From: an uncultured delta proteobacterium
Lineage (GTDB): Bacteria; Desulfobacterota; Binatia; UBA9968
Direction: 5' to 3'
DNA length: 64,000 nt
Assembly: GCA_963745035.1 (NCBI GenBank)
Contig: CAVUVW010000014.1
Span: forward strand, 160,001 to 224,000
The notes beneath the pieces are model-generated. The model was not told the origin of the DNA, made no database searches, and worked only from the letters and a program-made list of their open reading frames with translations. The first letter of the stretch is position 1. Each line of letters begins with the position of its first letter. Both the position numbers and the translations under genes were made by a program. Below are positions 16,401 through 43,456 of the stretch, piece after piece.

Positions 16401-17051
16401 GTGAGCGAAATTCTCAATTGGATCATGGAATCCATCCGCGCCCATGGCGCGTGGAGCGTTTTCGTCGGCGTGATCATCGAATCGGTGATCGTGCCGATCC
16501 CGTCGCCTCTGATCATCATGGGCGCGGGCTTCGTGCTGATCAGCCCGCAGTTGTCCTTTGTTCAGGCGTTGCTGCCGATCATGCTGCAAATCGTGTTGCC
16601 CGGCGCCATCGCTTCCACATTGGGCGCCTACATCGGCTACGCCATCGGCTATCTCGGCGGCAAGCCGATGGTCGATCGCTGGGAAAAGTTTCTGGGATTT
16701 AGCTGGAAAGATGTGGAAGCGCTCGAACGTCGCTTTCAAAGCGGCCAGATCAATACTTTGATTTTTTTTCTTCGCGCGCTGCCGGTTTTTCCGCTTTCGG
16801 TGATTTCAGCGGCGGCAGGCTTGCTGCGCTTGCCGCTCGGCAAATTCAGCCTCTGGACTTTTTACGGCGCCATTCCGCGCTGCTTGTTTCTTGGTTATCT
16901 CGGTTGGGGCCTGGGCGAAACCTATCAGGGCATGGCCAAAGGACTCGACAGGGCGGAAGGCATCGTTTCCGCGGTTCTGATTCTGGCAATCATCGGCGCG
17001 ATCCTTTGGCTCCGCGCTCGCGTACGCGGCAAACTGCTGGACAACGGCTAG
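16401..17051 (+). CDS. DedA-family membrane protein
   Basis: IESVIVPIPS, GYAIGYLGG, FFLRALP, ISAAAG. Confidence 0.88.
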   Translation: MSEILNWIMESIRAHGAWSVFVGVIIESVIVPIPSPLIIMGAGFVLISPQLSFVQALLPIMLQIVLPGAIASTLGAYIGYAIGYLGGKPMVDRWEKFLGFSWKDVEALERRFQSGQINTLIFFLRALPVFPLSVISAAAGLLRLPLGKFSLWTFYGAIPRCLFLGYLGWGLGETYQGMAKGLDRAEGIVSAVLILAIIGAILWLRARVRGKLLDNG

Positions 17052-17755
17052 AAAATTCCTAGCTCCGAACCGATCTCCCAACCCAACCAAAGCCCGAAAA
17101 CCACGCTGGCGACTCCGGCGAAGACGCGGATGGAGCGGTTCATCGCGGCAAAGCGCTGCGCCGTCAAGACGAACGGCAAGCTGATGATGCCGCTCAGCAA
17201 AAGCATGCCGCCCACCGAGCCCAAGCCGAAGATTACGATGTAGAGCAGCGCGCCGAGCGGCGACTCGATCGTCGAAAGCACGAGCAGCATGAGCGCGGCG
17301 CTGCCCGCCAAGCCGTGCACCATGCCGACGACGAACGGCCGGCGCATCGCCTGAAACGGATGGGTGTGGGCGTGGTCCTGCCTGGGATTGTCATGGACGT
17401 GAAAATGGGTGTGCGTCTGCGGACTGTGGCTGTGCGTGTGCAAGTGAACTTGCTCGGCGAATGTTTTGCGCAAAACGTTGATGCCGAGAACGATCAACAT
17501 CGCGGCGACCAAAAGCTCCAGTGCGCCGGCGACGTGCGGCGGGATCGTCAATCTCAGCCCGATGACCAGCAAACCGACGAGGAACAAGGTGGTCGTGTGG
17601 CCCAAACCCCAGAAGGCGCCGATCAGCGACGCCCATTTAAAGCTCTTCTGCTCGCTGACGATCGTTGAAACAGCGATCAAATGATCCGGGTCGAGCGCGT
17701 GCTGGATGCCCAACAGCAGGCCTAGCCCAAAAGCTGCAACCAGAGAGGATTCCAT
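17048..17755 (-). CDS. UreH/NiCoT-like nickel/cobalt transporter
   Basis: HALDPDHL, WGLGH, His-rich loop, GMVHGLAGS. Confidence 0.85.
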   Translation of the reverse strand: MESSLVAAFGLGLLLGIQHALDPDHLIAVSTIVSEQKSFKWASLIGAFWGLGHTTTLFLVGLLVIGLRLTIPPHVAGALELLVAAMLIVLGINVLRKTFAEQVHLHTHSHSPQTHTHFHVHDNPRQDHAHTHPFQAMRRPFVVGMVHGLAGSAALMLLVLSTIESPLGALLYIVIFGLGSVGGMLLLSGIISLPFVLTAQRFAAMNRSIRVFAGVASVVFGLWLGWEIGSELGIF

Positions 17756-19048: not shown

Positions 19049-19191
19049 CGCCGCTCTCCCGGATCTCAGCTCGGATCATAGCAACACCTTTCTTGAATTC
19101 AAAGCTCGGGACAGCTCGGCGATTTCGACCGGCGGCGTTGCCAAAACCTCTGCGAGTTGCCGCGAAACGATGTCCAGAATATTATGGGAGC

Positions 19192-20357
19192 ATGACGCGG
19201 CCGCCCTTTTCTCTCTACATTCACATCCCGTATTGCGTCAGCAAGTGCCCTTACTGCGATTTCAATTCCCACGTCGTCGCGGAGATCCCCGAAGCAGGCT
19301 ACATCGACGCCCTACTGCGGGAGCTGGAGCATTACGGCGCGATGGAGGATTGGCGCGAGCGCACAGTGCAAAGCATCTTTTTCGGCGGCGGCACGCCGTC
19401 GACGTTCAAGCCGCAAAGCATCGGCAAGCTGCTCGCCTGGGTGGCGGCGACTTTTCCGATCAATCTCGACTGTGAAATCACCTTGGAAGCCAATCCCGGA
19501 ACGGTCGACAGTGAGAAATTCTTCGGCTATCGCGACGCCGGGGTGAACCGCATCAGCGTCGGCGTGCAGTCGTTTCAACCGAAGCTGCTGCAATTTCTCG
19601 GCCGGATTCACAGCGCCGACGAAGCGCGTAGCGCCCTCGCCATCGTGCGCGAGGCCGGCTTCGAAAACTTTAGCTTGGATTTGATCTACGCCAATCCCGG
19701 CCAAACGCTTGCAAGACCTGGAAGCCGACCTCGACGCGGCGTTGGCATTTCAGCCGCCGCACCTCTCCGCCTACAACCTGACTTTCGAAGAAGGCACGCC
19801 GTTTCACCACGAATATCGCGCCGGCCGGATGAAGTCGCTCGGCGAAGAAGAAGAAATCGCCATGGCCGAGATGATCCAGGAAAAATTATCGGGCGCGGGC
19901 CTCTCGCGCTACGAAATCTCGAATTACGCCCGTCGCGGCTGGCATTCAAGGCACAACGTCAACTACTGGCGCAGCGGCGACTATCTCGGTCTCGGGGCCG
20001 GCGCGCACAGCTACCGAGTCGATGGCTCCAGACCTCCCGCGCGGGCGCCGTTGGAGCAATGAAAAAAACCCCGGACGTTATATGGCGCAGACGCTGGAAG
20101 CGCGCCCCGCCATCGTCGAAACCGAAGCCATCGAATTTGCCAAAGCGGCCGGCGAGTTCATGTTTCTCGGATTGCGCATGACCGAAGGAATCGCCGTGCA
20201 AAAATTCGCCGCGAGGTTCGGCAAGCCGCCGGCGGACTTTTATCCCAAGATTCGCGACTGGGTGGACGGGAGCCTCTTGGAAGAAACCGCCGGCCATCTG
20301 CGCCTGACGCCCAAGGGTCTGCTGGTCGCCAATGCGATCTTTGTCGAATTCCTGTAG
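19192..20357 (+). CDS. hemW: Radical SAM heme chaperone HemW (frameshifts near 19710 and 20030)
   Basis: LYIHIPYCVSKCPYCDFNS, FGGGTPS, YEISNY, HNVNYW, YLGLGAGAHS, FLGLRMTEG across three frames. Confidence 0.88.
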
Positions 20358-21646: not shown

Positions 21647-21925
21647 TCAGCTATCCTGCCTCGCTGCACTTAACCACTCTTCATGCACGTCGACCCAGAT
21701 CGTGTCCTGATCGTGGCAGGTTGAAACCTCGCTCAAATCGAATTTAACCGTGTAGAGCGGCTTGTGGATGCCGCGGTGGTCGCGGACGTTTTCCAGAATG
21801 CCGTGAACCGAACCGATGACGCCGCGTTTGCCGCGGATGTATTTCGGCGTACGCGGATTGCCTGTGGGATTTTCGACGGCGACCATGACTGCGTCGCCGA
21901 TTTTGTATTTGCTGTTGGAGTCCAT
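21647..21925 (-). CDS. SH3-like nitrile hydratase beta C-terminal domain protein (thiocyanate hydrolase alpha-like)
   Basis: KIGDAV...GNPRTPKYIRGKRGVI...PLYTVKF...VDVHEEWL. Confidence 0.85.
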   Translation of the reverse strand: MDSNSKYKIGDAVMVAVENPTGNPRTPKYIRGKRGVIGSVHGILENVRDHRGIHKPLYTVKFDLSEVSTCHDQDTIWVDVHEEWLSAARQDS

Positions 21926-21933
21926 AGCGGTTT

Positions 21934-23009
21934 CTCAATCGGGCCGGACTCTCGGGCGCCTCCGGCGTCGCTCCGGATTTTTCGGCTTCTCGCTGCTGCC
22001 TAGGTTCCAGCGCATAGCCTGCCCCTAACAAACTGTCGACGGTGACGAGCTTGGCTAACTCTTCTTCCGACATTCCCTCCGTACCAGCCGGGCGTTGCGG
22101 CAAAACAAAATAGCGCACGTCGGACGTGCTGTCCCAGACTTGGACTTCTTTATTGGCGGGCAGCTCCAACTGAAACATTTCTTTGGCGCACGCGCGCGGG
22201 TTCTGCACGATCTTAGTTCGGTAGCTTTCGTGTTTGTACCACCACGGCGTGTCGCCGAGGATGTCGTAGGGGTAGCAGGAGCAGAGCGTGCACACGATCA
22301 GGTTGTGGGTCTTGTCGGTATTCTCCACGACGACGAGTTTGCCGACTTTGCCCTGGTGCACGCCCATTTCTCTCAGCGCTTCCCTGCCCGTAGTCAAAAG
22401 TGCGTTTTTGAACTCCGGATCGGTCCACGCTTTGGCGACGATCACGCCGCCGGCCCAGGGGCGTTCTTCATGAAGCTGCTTCCAACGCTGCTCCAAATCC
22501 TCCCGCGTGGCCCAGCCGCGCTTGATCAGCGCCTGGACGAAGACCTCGAGCAGTTCCTGGTAATCCGAGAGATCTTGCTCCAGATTCACCATGCGCTCTT
22601 GCAGCGTGCCGTGGTGTTCTTTTTTTTTGATTTTGAAAAAGTCGTCGTAGTCGCCGCGTTCTTTACGATTGTCCTCTGTCACCATGTCCATCCCTTCGAC
22701 CGTGCGCGCGGAAACCAGAGCGATGCCTTTTACGTATTCATCGAGCCATTCTTCGAGATAGCGCACGCGCGCCTCGACATTCTTGCCTTGCGGCTTCGCG
22801 AGCTTAAAAAAATGGTCTTTCTTCTTGAGCGCCGCGCGAACCTTGAGCAGGTCATAGAACGTCACCACGCCACGGCGCAGCAGATAAATGATGCGCGGCT
22901 CGAAGCGCTTGGCCCGGTAATACTCCAAGTCTTCCTCGACGGCTTTGACGTGCGCTTCGTAGTCGTGCATGTGGCCTTCGAAGGGCTTGTGGCCGTGTTT
23001 TCCCGACAT
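21934..23009 (-). CDS. Cobalt-type nitrile hydratase alpha-like protein with ~150-aa N-terminal extension
   Basis: VAKAWTDPEFK, VVENT, VCTLCSCYP, WDSTSDVRYFVLPQRPAGTEG. Likely true stop is TGA near 21934 after a 1-bp indel; the track ORF reads on to 21744. Confidence 0.85.
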
Positions 23010-23025
23010 GATATTTCCCCCGAAT

Positions 23026-24735
23026 TCAGTGCGTCTCGAATATCTCTTGATACTCTTTCAGCTTCGTCTTCGTCGCTGCCGTTTCCGCCGCTGTCGGATT
23101 GGCTGGGTCAACAGCGGGCGGCAGGCAGCCGAGTTTCATCAAACATGCCATCAGTAAGAGCCGCGCCTTGGTGGCGGTCAAGTTGCTGCCGGCGATCGCT
23201 AGTGGATCGCGGGTCGGATCAACAAATCCACCAGCATTGCCGCGCCCGACCTTGACGACCGGCATGCCGCTGAAGATCGCGCGCTTGAGCGCGGCGTCGA
23301 CCGAATTGCTCATGGCGCCGAACGGCGCCGATCCCTCGGCGATAAATCCCGCCAAGCGCGCGGATTCGAGATTTTTTTCGATCCGCGCCAGGATATCGAC
23401 TTCGCTCCGCGCGTCTCCCGAAGTATCTTCCGGCAAATAGCGCGCGTGCTTGACGATCGTCACATTTGGAATCGCGCCTGGCAGCAGATCCCCTCGATCA
23501 TCCCGAATAGCGACGGTGACCGTTCCGATCTTTGAACCTTGAGCTCTTGAACCTTGAACCGCGCTTGGGAGTTGGGTCAGATTCACCGCCGAATTATGGG
23601 TGTGCCGCTTGACCGGCTTGAAGGAAAACTGCGGCGCGCCGGGATGACCGATCCGGCCGATGATGCCGCCGTGGCCGCCGGTGGCGACATAGCCGCCGGG
23701 CCGCGCGTCGGCTTTCTGGACGTCGCGCGAGGTAAAAATCTGCTCGTCGAGAATCGCCACCGCTCCGATGCAGTCATTGCCGCTTTCATCGGCCCAGATC
23801 CGCGAAGTAATGTAATCGACGGAATCGACGATGTTGCGGTCACCGTCGTTGGCGATAGCGCCGTGCGGACGTTGGGAGGAATTGCCCGCAATCGGCAGGG
23901 TCGTGTCGATCAGCAGATTGAGCCAGTAGGTCGTCTCTTCAACGAAAGGACTTCCTTCGAGCCAGATTGCGCCCAAATACTTGCCGCTCGCCAGCGCGCG
24001 CTGCACTACGTTCGTTACCTGCGCCAGCGCCGCCATCGGCGGCTCTTTGCGCAAGTAACTCGGGCGGTACGGGAAAAAATCGACGCCGCGAGTCTCCGGC
24101 GCGATGTCGCCAGCGCCGATATCGGTGCGCTCGGCGGCGCTTCGTCCCTTTGCGTAGCCGCCCGACGGCAACGCGCGATAGAAGTCGAACTCGGCTTTCG
24201 CCGTCAGCAAACAGCCCACGCCCTGGTTGGAAATTCCCAGGCGATCGATTTCTTCGAAGAGTCTCGAGCCGTCGGGAAAAAACGACACGCGGCAGAGCTC
24301 ACTCGAAGCGTTCTTCTCCGTGCCGTCCATTTCCCACGCCTGGCCACCGGCCTGGCGCGCCATGTACGGCAGCGGGTAAAGACCGTCCTCGGGGCGCAGG
24401 AGCACTTCGTAGACCGGCTTATCGCCCGGACCGGTGCGCTCCTTATGAAACGCGCCGGCGGCGTCGAGATAACCGTCCGGCGGCGCGTACAGTTCGGCGA
24501 AATCGCGTTCGAGCGGGTGCGCGCTGAACTGCTCGATGTAGACTGTGACCGGCGCCGCCAGGCGCTGCGGGCGCAGAACGTCGAAGCGCATGGCCGAGCC
24601 GTCGGCATGGGTGCGCGGCGGCAAGCCGTGCTGCTCGCGCGCCTTGTTGCTCGTGACCAGCGGTTCGGTATTTTGAATGGTCGCGGTCGGTCCGGAAAAA
24701 ACCGCGATGCGGGGTTTGTCGTTTGTCGCTGCCAT
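23026..24735 (-). CDS. Divergent asparaginase/glutaminase-fold protein
   Basis: SGPTATIQN (GGTI-like), WLEGSPFVEETTYWL (HGTDT-like), SSQRPH, DGDRNI, C-terminal GSNLTATKARLLLM. Confidence 0.75.
   Translation of the reverse strand: MAATNDKPRIAVFSGPTATIQNTEPLVTSNKAREQHGLPPRTHADGSAMRFDVLRPQRLAAPVTVYIEQFSAHPLERDFAELYAPPDGYLDAAGAFHKERTGPGDKPVYEVLLRPEDGLYPLPYMARQAGGQAWEMDGTEKNASSELCRVSFFPDGSRLFEEIDRLGISNQGVGCLLTAKAEFDFYRALPSGGYAKGRSAAERTDIGAGDIAPETRGVDFFPYRPSYLRKEPPMAALAQVTNVVQRALASGKYLGAIWLEGSPFVEETTYWLNLLIDTTLPIAGNSSQRPHGAIANDGDRNIVDSVDYITSRIWADESGNDCIGAVAILDEQIFTSRDVQKADARPGGYVATGGHGGIIGRIGHPGAPQFSFKPVKRHTHNSAVNLTQLPSAVQGSRAQGSKIGTVTVAIRDDRGDLLPGAIPNVTIVKHARYLPEDTSGDARSEVDILARIEKNLESARLAGFIAEGSAPFGAMSNSVDAALKRAIFSGMPVVKVGRGNAGGFVDPTRDPLAIAGSNLTATKARLLLMACLMKLGCLPPAVDPANPTAAETAATKTKLKEYQEIFETH
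23532..23560. repeat. Tandem TTGAACC-type repeat inside the asparaginase-like CDS
   Basis: TTGAACC-TTGAGCTC-TTGAACC-TTGAACC; the minus strand encodes VQGSRAQGSK. Confidence 0.7.
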
Positions 24736-24811: not shown

Positions 24812-25397
24812 CTATCTCAGTTCGTAAGGAAGCTGCTTCGGACCGTAACCCTGCCAGTATTTATTTGTCGATGCATCGTAACGCCCTTGCAGAAAACCGC
24901 CAGCTTTTTCCGCGCGCACGATGATCGCCACCGTGCGTTCGGTCGCCGCTTTCCTCGGCGTGGATTTCATAAGGCGGAACGAGGTCGATCTTGCCCGCCC
25001 CGACTTGCACGTTCACGGTCTTGCGGATCTCGGCGTAATCCGGCTTGGAGCCGTCATCCGTGCGCTCGTAGCGCTCGATGGTCTCGCTACCGTCGAGCAC
25101 GCCATAGAGCGTCCAGTTGTGCGCATGATCGTGGATTTGGGTACGAGTCTTCGGCGCTTTAATCAGTCCGTTGATGACGAACTTGTAGTCGGGATCTTCG
25201 TAGAAGAGCAGGTTCTCCGCACGCTCGCTCCCCTGGGAGCAGTCGGGCCAGCTCTTCGATTGTTCCTTGATCGAGGGATCGGCCAGCAATTCTTGCAATA
25301 AGGGCGGCATCTTCGCCCAGCGCTGTGCGGCATCGGCTTCAGCGGCAAAAAGAGCGCGTGTGGAATCGATAAACTTTTGCACGGCGGATTGAGCCAT
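24812..25397 (-). CDS. Cysteine/thiol dioxygenase-like cupin (frameshift near 24940)
   Basis: IHDHAHNWTLYGVLDGSETIERYER and EIHAE give a 3-His set. The C-terminus ...GRYD...GYGPKQLPYELR* is in a shifted frame. AAGGAGG RBS. Confidence 0.72.
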
Positions 25398-42260: not shown

Positions 42261-42314
42261 TGCCGCACGCACGCGCTGTCGCCCCGGGCAAGCAGCAAAA
42301 TTGGAGGATATTTT

Positions 42315-43456
42315 ATGGTAACAGAGGAACTCGCATCGTTGCGCGTCGATCAGGTCGGCAGTCTGTTAAGGCCGCAAAGATTGAAGGACGCGTTCGCCGA
42401 TTACGGCCGCGGTAAAATCAGCGAAGATGATTTGAAAAGAGCCCAAGACGACGCGATCCGCGACGTCGTGACGAAACAGGCCGCGCACAATCTACCGATC
42501 ATCGTCGACGGCGAATTTCGCCGTACGAGCTTCATGGAAAGCTTCGCCGTGGTTGCCGGGGTGGAGGAATGGCAGACCGGCGTGAAGACCTACCATGAGA
42601 TCCTGGCGCGCCAGGATACCGACGACTCGGTTTCCCACAAAGGCCAGGACCCGATTCTGCTCAATCGCAAGCGCGTCACCGAACGCTTGCGCCTGGTGCG
42701 CAATTCGCTGCTCGACGACTACCGCTTCACGCAGGGGCTCACCAACCGTGCGGTCAAAGTGACGTTGATCAGCGCCGACCGGATCAGCCAATGCTATGAC
42801 AGCGAGGCCTCGCGCGCCGTCTATCCCAACGTCGAAGAATTCCTCAGCGACGTGGTGGCGGTGCAGCGGCAGCATGATCGGCGAATTGGCCCAGGCGGAT
42901 TGCCGCTACATCGGCATCGACGGGCCGGGTTACACGGCGTACGTCGATCCGGATTCGCTCGCCGCCATGCGCTCGCGCGGTGAAAACCCGCAAAGTAATT
43001 TGGCCCGCTCCATTGCCGTTGACAACGAAATCATTGGAGACTTTCCAGGAGATCACCTTCGGCATCCATATTTGCCGCGGCAACCGGCAGAGCATGTGGC
43101 ACCGTGAAGGACACTATGACGCTATCGCGGAGACGCTCTTCAACGGCCTGCGCCACCAGCGCCTGCTGCTGGAGTACGACACCGAGCGCGCCGGCGGTTT
43201 CGCGCCGCTGCGCTTCGTGCCGAAAGGCAAGATCGCCGTGCTCGGCTTGATCACCACCAAGGTCGGCCGGGTGGAGAGCGTCGACGAACTGCGCCGGCGC
43301 ATCGATGAAGCCGCGCGCTACCTGCCGCTCGAGCAACTAGCGCTCAGCCCGCAGTGCGGCTTCGCCTCAAGCCTGCGCGGCAATCTCCTGACCGAAGAGG
43401 AGCAGTTCCGCAAGTTGGACGTGATGCTGGAGACGGCAAGAAAGGTGTGGGGTTAA
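42315..43456 (+). CDS. Cobalamin-independent methionine synthase II family (two frameshifts)
   Basis: DQVGSLLRP, DGEFRR, IHICRGN, LEYD, SPQCGFAS. Close paralog of 20421-21599. Confidence 0.85.

Follow-up and report, generated by a model that had tools for sequence, protein, structure and literature searches.

An extended cobalt-type nitrile hydratase alpha subunit paired with a lone SH3-like beta subunit in Binatia

Two adjacent genes on the minus strand of the analysed DNA (64,000 nucleotides, hereafter the window) encode an extended nitrile hydratase (NHase) alpha subunit (21935..23009) and an SH3-like beta C-terminal subunit of 92 amino acids (21647..21925). Upstream on the same strand are genes for a 569 amino acid asparaginase-fold protein (23026..24735) and a thiol-dioxygenase-like cupin (24815..25397); both are found upstream in Binatia loci only and the former lies outside the conserved core. 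The alpha protein is 357 amino acids long and not 421, the length of the minus-strand frame as assembled (23009-21744). One extra base at position 21953, which the original prediction overlooked, carries the frame over the SH3 gene; this base is missing in every contig that covers the site, from three of four DNA runs (the fourth leaves 21953 without cover) and one of four RNA runs, and the contigs from two of those three DNA runs are ~99% identical to the window over 500-670 bases. The corrected stop codon is at 21937-21935, 9 nucleotides ahead of the SH3 start. The alpha protein has 357 residues in 100 of the 120 homologues listed, with R-x-R-P-D/E as the C-terminal end in 114 of them, and the stop comes 118 residues after the metal-binding motif in the 18 loci of relatives that have this stretch complete, compared with 182 here. 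The extra base is probably an assembly indel, since other genes of the window also break frame relative to their relatives, namely hemN (19093-20357), the cupin (near 24945) and a metE paralogue (42303-43450), a pattern that points towards indel errors of the assembly. A fused alpha-SH3 gene, or a pair of overlapping genes, was ruled out as the overlap is an artefact of the one base. Short contigs from four RNA libraries span parts of the alpha and SH3 genes; expression was not deduced from them because such contigs cannot demonstrate transcription.

Residues 152-330 of the alpha protein match PF02979 (NHase_alpha) with an E-value of 1.9e-64, and the intact VCTLCSCY of the original prediction was confirmed, its cysteines spanning C240-C245 (nucleotides 22292-22275). 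In the Co-type metal-binding motif CTLCSC (22275..22292, minus strand) C240, C243, S244 and C245 are conserved in 62 of 62 aligned rows and T241 in 60 of 62. A model of a homologue that is 97% identical (P0003) superposes over residues 133-337 on residues 6-205 of 4ob3_A (Z 25.0, rmsd 3.7, 199 residues aligned, 41% identity). The canonical alpha chain therefore starts at residue ~133, and the N-terminal extension comprises ~132 residues and not the ~150 first proposed. The enzyme is likely to work like a Co-type nitrile hydratase. The NCBIfam equivalog cut-offs are missed by both TIGR01323 (211.9 against 249.85 bits) and TIGR03888 (43.2 against 152.2 bits), and on subunit structure the pair falls outside the canonical NHases. 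The NHLP leader peptide model TIGR03793 does score above its cut-off. Leader peptides of this kind, which are RiPP precursors, have lost the metal-binding motif and are encoded with a core peptide and near RiPP enzymes; this identity was ruled out, as the metal motif is preserved and the neighbours scanned include no RiPP enzymes. PF27793 is precomputed on many of the homologues and absent from our own Pfam scans. Two deep members of the family, P0184 and P0219, carry C-F-F-C-S-C and C-F-G-C-S-C, respectively, in place of C-T-L-C-S-C and may differ in metal choice. In some Binatia genomes the extended alpha gene is present in truncated or decayed form (L123:3237-3725, L124:5971-6567 and L038).

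The 92 amino acid protein matches PF02211, the beta C-terminal domain, and no other profile (E 3.7e-14). N23-P-R25-T-P and D49-H50 are invariant (44 of 44 rows), and the loop bearing D49-H50 is shortened by ~4 residues. R25 aligns with the arginine of the G-H-T-R motif of known beta chains, a column which we take to be the beta-Arg141/157 position. The SH3 gene follows the alpha gene in 71 of 80 loci; seven of the nine misses end at a contig edge and the other two are truncated alpha genes. The same arrangement is found in six of the seven metagenome loci of an archaea-like branch that show the extension, with no SH3 match on the short contig of the seventh. In phylogenetic trees the SH3 partners of the extended alphas form one group with those of three related loci, L156-L158 (support 100/99; 94 in a repeat tree that omits 19 rows of the previous set). 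The shortened loop is common to both sets of partners, and its D-H motif is present in all 112 SH3 sequences of this group and is absent from 33 SH3 domains of full-length beta chains.

The extended alpha subunit with its lone SH3 partner is a real and widespread variant of a known enzyme. Residues 1-150 gave 105 matches in a search of 1.84 billion representative sequences; two of the 105 (P0224 and P0225) are repeat proteins and were left out. A scan of species genomes yielded 206 pattern hits, of which 139 were confirmed and 80 kept. The record titles, some of which look unreliable, are mostly Ca. Binatia, together with Pseudolabrys, Xanthobacteraceae, Stellaceae, Chloroflexota, Methylomirabilia and Acidiferrales, and two members bear the label Nitrososphaerales archaeon. 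Within the window's genus, 29 of the 30 genomes searched have a match that spans the extension, so that the enzyme probably takes a routine part in the turnover of soil nitrogen; such matches are also present in some genomes from other families of the same order. The alpha cores of the extended family form one clade (support 100/99), which falls in a group with the split-beta and fused enzymes and apart from the canonical alpha-beta enzymes (98/95); the split-beta types in this tree are those of the genomes studied, and not the named enzymes thiocyanate hydrolase (SCNase), ToyJKL and AnhDEA.

The N-terminal extension (residues 1-132; 22614..23009, minus strand) is likely to be a remodelled beta N-domain (beta-N). 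It is conserved to the same degree as the catalytic core, with a column identity of 0.80 for residues 13-47 and 0.83 for residues 110-125 compared with 0.77 for the core. D27, Y30, K34 and R35 of the helix pair at residues 17-60 (22830..22961, minus strand) do not vary in any of the 60 rows that include these positions, and in the loop at residues 110-122 (22644..22682, minus strand), D113-x-R115-x-E117-x-G119-x-Y121, the residues R115, E117, G119 and Y121 are present in 62 of 62 rows. Extension and SH3 subunit together amount to 224 residues, near the length of a normal beta chain (206-233). A model of residues 1-195 alone (pTM 0.77) contains helices at 17-45, 51-60, 78-100, 136-163 and 169-182, with the loop at 111-119 unsure, and in the alpha monomer model the pLDDT is below 50 for residues 110-127. 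The extension is predicted to fold as a three-helix bundle and to occupy the alpha arm that a beta-N would need (pTM 0.77).

The internal repeats of the original prediction hold in part. They are weak on the single sequence, where 26 and 28 of 2000 shuffles reach the score, and 81 of 2000 for unit 1 against unit 2, and they are clear by profile for residues 73-133 against 131-184 (HHalign score 26.4, 0 of 60 shuffles, reversed control 9.6) and marginal for residues 13-62 against 131-184 (1 of 60 shuffles). Since the two pairs first proposed have unequal offsets (56 and 118), the repeats consist of one amphipathic helix in three copies, at residues ~16, 78 and 135, and not a single tandem repeat. 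The helix pair at residues 17-60 may be a module of two helices that was duplicated or permuted; its identity as a permuted second half of beta-N was rejected as unsupported (score 13.3 against 12.8 for the reversed control).

When the profile of the extension was compared directly with beta-N, the result was not significant (E 0.014-0.26), nor was that for a permuted profile (E 0.065), and the score of unit 2 against the first half of beta-N was matched by 17 of 60 shuffles. No profile alignment was found to the beta subunit of NHase or to that of SCNase; neither of the two results that would have contradicted the original prediction, a full alignment to SCNase beta or a conventional beta-N partner gene, was obtained. 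A PDB sequence search with the extension profile gave no match below an E-value of 0.1, and Pfam scans returned weak coiled-coil hits and no beta-N match. With the 1-195 model Foldseek found nothing at E ≤ 0.001 and the best VIA-align row was an unrelated chain (Z 6.6), neither of which shows that the folds differ. Beta chains ranked 4, 5 and 20 of 48,161 in VIA-align with the same model (Z 4.9, 4.8 and 4.1; rmsd 9.5, 6.7 and 5.1), in matches that include the alpha arm, and beta chains of NHase and SCNase ranked 4, 5 and 13 of 48,161 with the full model, in a Z range of 4-5.4 and among generic bundles.

A bridge between the extension and beta-N is provided by a second clade, in which a plain fusion of beta-N to alpha is encoded with a lone SH3 gene. 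It includes L156:909-2100 (genome G037), L157:1471-2724 (G041) and L158:899-2100 (G039), with alphas of 305-318 amino acids and the SH3 gene upstream, and a fourth fused gene, L216 (G421), that is matched by the fused-extension profile and brings the range of the clade to ~290-318 amino acids. The extension of this clade aligns with beta-N over 72 columns (HHalign 97.5%, E 7e-12), its profile also matches stand-alone beta-N genes, L156 scores above the PF21006 cut-off (30.6 bits), and there is a weak match to the SCNase beta subunit (E 0.01). Residues 73-133 of the extended alphas, including the helix at 78-100 (22710..22778, minus strand), which aligns with the first helix of the fused beta-N, match the first half of this domain with an E-value of 7e-4, placing V-I-E-D-x-R115 on V-V-E-D-G-R. 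The score of 23.7 is reached by 0 of 60 column shuffles (reversed control 9.6); the alignment comprises 34 columns of a four-sequence profile and has an HHalign probability of 27%. The bridged arginine column is that of the beta-N D-E-x-R motif and, by manual count of the alignment, R91 of SCNase beta. The tyrosine of the beta Y-Y-E-R motif (beta-Tyr72/68), from a manual motif reading, falls on a column that is apparently Leu/Val in the extended alphas (L136); the invariant Y121 and Y30 are candidates for its role. Beta-N and the alpha arm have the same helix pair in common (E 3e-7). In the alpha-core tree a sister relationship of the extended clade and the fused clade is neither shown nor rejected (support 6).

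A third fusion type was observed in another family of the order (L165-L179 and L181, e.g. L168:1878-2989), where it is present in 15 of 15 loci fetched from one genus. An SH3 gene accompanies an alpha of 270-288 amino acids, whose N-terminus consists of a second beta-N helix pair, a His-rich linker and an arm resembling the first pair that ends in T-D-E-V-R-R. The profile of this type matches the beta-N helix pairs with E-values of 5e-8 and 8e-5, and it looks like a circularly permuted fusion of beta-N to alpha. Fusions of beta-N to alpha with a free SH3 subunit thus occur in several forms in these bacteria, the extended alpha being likely the most derived. We favour the descent of the extension from beta-N, with some reserve, and lean slightly towards R115 as the equivalent of the beta-chain Arg56/52.

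No PF21006 (beta-N) match was found at the window locus even at E ≤ 1, 95 loci searched with a beta-N HMM of our own yielded no significant match (best E 1.1), and no activator gene was found in these loci, so that the absence of either gene nearby, as originally predicted, holds across the loci searched. The genome of the window (G000) encodes three NHase architectures together, as it also contains a three-subunit NHase-like set (G000:C17:88234-89436, L002), with beta-N, a beta-C with a frame break and an alpha carrying C-S-C-Y-P-R, and a canonical alpha-beta-activator set (G000:C21:345999-347555, L001).

The complex was modelled with two alpha and two SH3 chains, of which only alpha against SH3 was scored. 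The ipSAE of 0.77 compares with 0.00 for the best of three controls; the mark applied is reached by 116 of 157 solved pairs and 2 of 215 mismatched pairs, a comparison that is only rough because the alignments used here were our own. At least 81% of contacts were common to the runs and the partner pLDDT was at least 81. Such a pass is expected, because alpha and SH3 resemble the solved NHases. The confident interface includes residues 110-112 and 120-121 of the extension, residues 241-242 of the metal motif and, on the SH3 side, residues 23-27 (with R25) and 44-51. The loop at residues 110-122 is thus predicted to touch the SH3 subunit; R115 itself is absent from the listed interface residues.

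In known enzymes of this superfamily the motif cysteines are oxidised to sulfinate and sulfenate. Two beta arginines hydrogen-bond these oxidised cysteines and Arg56 is essential, according to the accessible text of PMC4618400 and PMC7193024. By analogy, Co(III) in the extended alpha would be held by C240, C243, S244 and C245, where C243 and C245 would be present as sulfinate and sulfenate. The helices at 17-45, 78-100 and 136-163 are predicted to pack where beta-N normally wraps the alpha arm, with the loop at 110-122 docked on the SH3 subunit near the metal site, where Arg115 and SH3 Arg25 would take the place of the two beta arginines. The nitrile would be hydrated to the amide, and maturation would proceed with no dedicated activator. 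We are fairly confident that the extension does the job of beta-N, and consider it probable that the two genes constitute a self-contained Co nitrile hydratase in which a beta-N-derived extension fused to alpha replaces beta-N and the SH3 protein is the C-terminal half of beta.

Beyond the alpha and SH3 genes, scanning of 58 neighbour ORFs (54 out of 115 listed candidates, for the most part those lying closest, and four of the rest from L034-L036) revealed no common partner. The asparaginase-fold gene is present in 44 of 80 loci and in only two of the 33 distant ones, and the thiol-dioxygenase-like gene in 39 of 80 and in only three of the 33. In Binatia the two are co-oriented and were both kept through one rearrangement. 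A four-gene pathway that included them was dropped, as they are rare in the distant loci, and is kept as a lineage-limited hint: the asparaginase-fold protein may be an amidase companion that hydrolyses the amide, an arrangement that would fit, as a hint only, the sequence nitrile to amide to acid. The asparaginase-fold protein is divergent, the H-G-T-D-T motif appearing as E-G-S-P-F in the alignment, and its chemistry may differ from that of asparaginase. The cupin resembles mercaptosuccinate and 3-mercaptopropionate dioxygenases (mercaptosuccinate dioxygenase match, E 2.5e-10). The proximity of a thiol-to-sulfinate cupin to an enzyme that needs a Cys-sulfinate is suggestive, though it is absent from most distant loci. 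A NicO-family nickel/cobalt transporter-like gene lies ~4 kb downstream (17048-17755 of the window), beside molybdopterin genes, and is not conserved beside the alpha-SH3 pair in most loci.

Two other accounts of the extension were weighed. If a three-subunit enzyme were completed by a conventional beta-N encoded at another place in the genome, the extension would be incidental. PF21006 genes are indeed encoded by G000 and by 36 of 41 searched relatives; however, the strong matches in G000 and the other genomes tested each adjoin another alpha of their own. In G043, G061 and G439 the extended alpha is the sole alpha and there is no PF21006 match, and no stand-alone beta-N was found in G037, G039 and G041. 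Most of the genomes searched are drafts (G043 is 95% complete in 500 contigs and G037 is one contig, 97% complete), and the genome-wide search is imperfectly sensitive, since it missed the fused, divergent beta-N of G037 that hmmscan detects. As the extension is also predicted to sit on the arm that such a beta-N would require, we regard a separate partner as very improbable. The other account, raised in the original prediction as a coiled-coil scaffold, holds that the extension is an unrelated helical element that arose by duplication of the alpha-arm helix and serves in oligomerisation or protein binding, catalysis being performed by alpha and SH3 alone. The repeat between residues 73-133 and 131-184 equals in strength the alignment that links the extension to the fused clade (26.4 and 23.7), the fold neighbours of the 1-195 model include generic three-helix bundles, and the coiled-coil Pfam hits would suit a scaffold. 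The isolated alpha subunit of toyocamycin NHase, ToyJ, is reported to be active alone, as cited in the accessible text of PMC7329996, and a substitute for beta-N is therefore not strictly required; in a three-subunit NHase described in the same text, alpha and beta-C without beta-N retain ~4% of full activity. Against a scaffold, invariance of R115, E117, Y121, D27, Y30, K34 and R35 across bacterial and archaea-labelled proteins would be unusual, and in the predicted complex the loop forms part of the interface with SH3. Repeat-likeness, moreover, is also expected from beta-N descent because beta-N and the alpha arm have a helix pair in common. The evidence thus favours replacement of beta-N and suggests descent from it, with a pure scaffold unlikely; the two roles are not mutually exclusive, the predicted fold being a three-helix bundle.

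An alternative that keeps this architecture is that the enzyme acts on something other than an organic nitrile, for example thiocyanate, an isonitrile or a sulphur compound tied to the neighbouring thiol dioxygenase. Consistent with this are the placement of the alpha core among split-beta types, the remodelled SH3 loop (D-H-R), the mercaptosuccinate-dioxygenase-like gene and the two missed equivalog cut-offs. On the other side, the cupin is rare in the more distant loci and the thiocyanate hydrolase model TIGR03887 scores 146.7, below its cut-off of 291.45. The residue that follows C-S-C-Y-P (Y248) is Tyr in 40, His in 19 and Arg in 3 of 62 rows; read from mutant titles, this position corresponds to W116 in P. 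thermophila NHase and to gamma-R136 in SCNase. Position 114, before R115, corresponds to SCNase beta-Arg90 and is T/N/G/S/V/M/Y/L in 60 of 62 rows, hence non-Arg in at least 60 of 62. Gamma-R136 and beta-R90 are, we presume, the pocket arginines that govern the choice of thiocyanate in SCNase; if so, thiocyanate is an unlikely substrate because neither is kept, and the enzyme is probably not a thiocyanate hydrolase. A non-nitrile substrate as a whole seems to us slightly less probable than the scaffold. For the nitrile hydratase, a small polar or amino-bearing nitrile is our tentative guess at the substrate, because acidic residues are conserved in the loop (E112, D113, E117 and D122), behind the metal motif (D249) and in the SH3 subunit (D49). 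A bolder scenario, which we hold to be possible rather than probable, is that beta-N, once fused to alpha, was reshaped through duplication or permutation of helix pairs with the catalytic Arg loop alone surviving; the outcome would be a fourth architecture of the superfamily, common to soil bacteria and archaea, activator-free and with an acidic pocket for an unrecognised natural amino-nitrile or a non-nitrile, and the two further fusion types would show beta-N and the alpha arm to be interchangeable copies of a helix-pair module.

This architecture is apparently new to the literature. No description of an extended alpha with an SH3-only beta was found in the literature searched, which mostly excludes subscription papers and supplements. 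The accessible part of a 2012 survey reports beta-alpha fusions in eukaryotes only and none in prokaryotes (PMC3323583), a statement that the prokaryotic fused clades described here qualify. Section 10 of a review, in the text available, gives six gene organisations, none of which is an extended alpha with an SH3-only beta (PMC7193024), and nitrile hydratase is mentioned in the accessible text of two papers on archaeal genomes with no reference to this architecture (PMC13753752, PMC12625717). Annotation pipelines assign the label 'nitrile hydratase alpha' and miss the design. The NHases are of major industrial use as catalysts; how they assemble, with activators and swapping of subunits, and what the beta arginines do have long been studied. 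A two-gene, activator-free form with the beta-N half inside alpha is directly testable and could differ in substrate range.

The pair resembles the Co-type alpha2beta2 NHases (P. thermophila, 1IRE/4OB3; Bacillus/Geobacillus, 2DPP and 1V29) in its alpha fold, its CTLCSC motif and an SH3-like beta C-domain with the G-x-x-R-x-P-x-Y arginine. Unlike these enzymes it lacks a full-length beta chain as well as an activator gene, and it has a fused extension of 132 amino acids and a shortened SH3 loop that carries D-H-R; the Trp after the motif in the P. thermophila enzyme (alpha W116) is Tyr or His in the extended alphas. As in SCNase (2DD4), toyocamycin NHase (ToyJKL) and Streptomyces canus AnhDEA, the last in the accessible text of PMC7329996, the beta chain is split and its SH3 half is a separate small gene, and AnhDEA, according to the same text, is also without an activator. 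These three-subunit enzymes, however, have beta-N as a recognisable gene of its own, which is absent here with the extension in its place, and SCNase differs further in having three subunits instead of two genes and in its pocket arginines, which are not kept. The fused NHases of the Monosiga brevicollis type, in the parts of PMC3323583 and PMC7193024 available, likewise have beta-derived sequence ahead of alpha and no known activator. In that type the whole beta chain is fused through a linker, whereas in the extended alphas the N-terminal half alone seems to be fused, in a form unrecognisable by Pfam, and the SH3 half remains a separate subunit.
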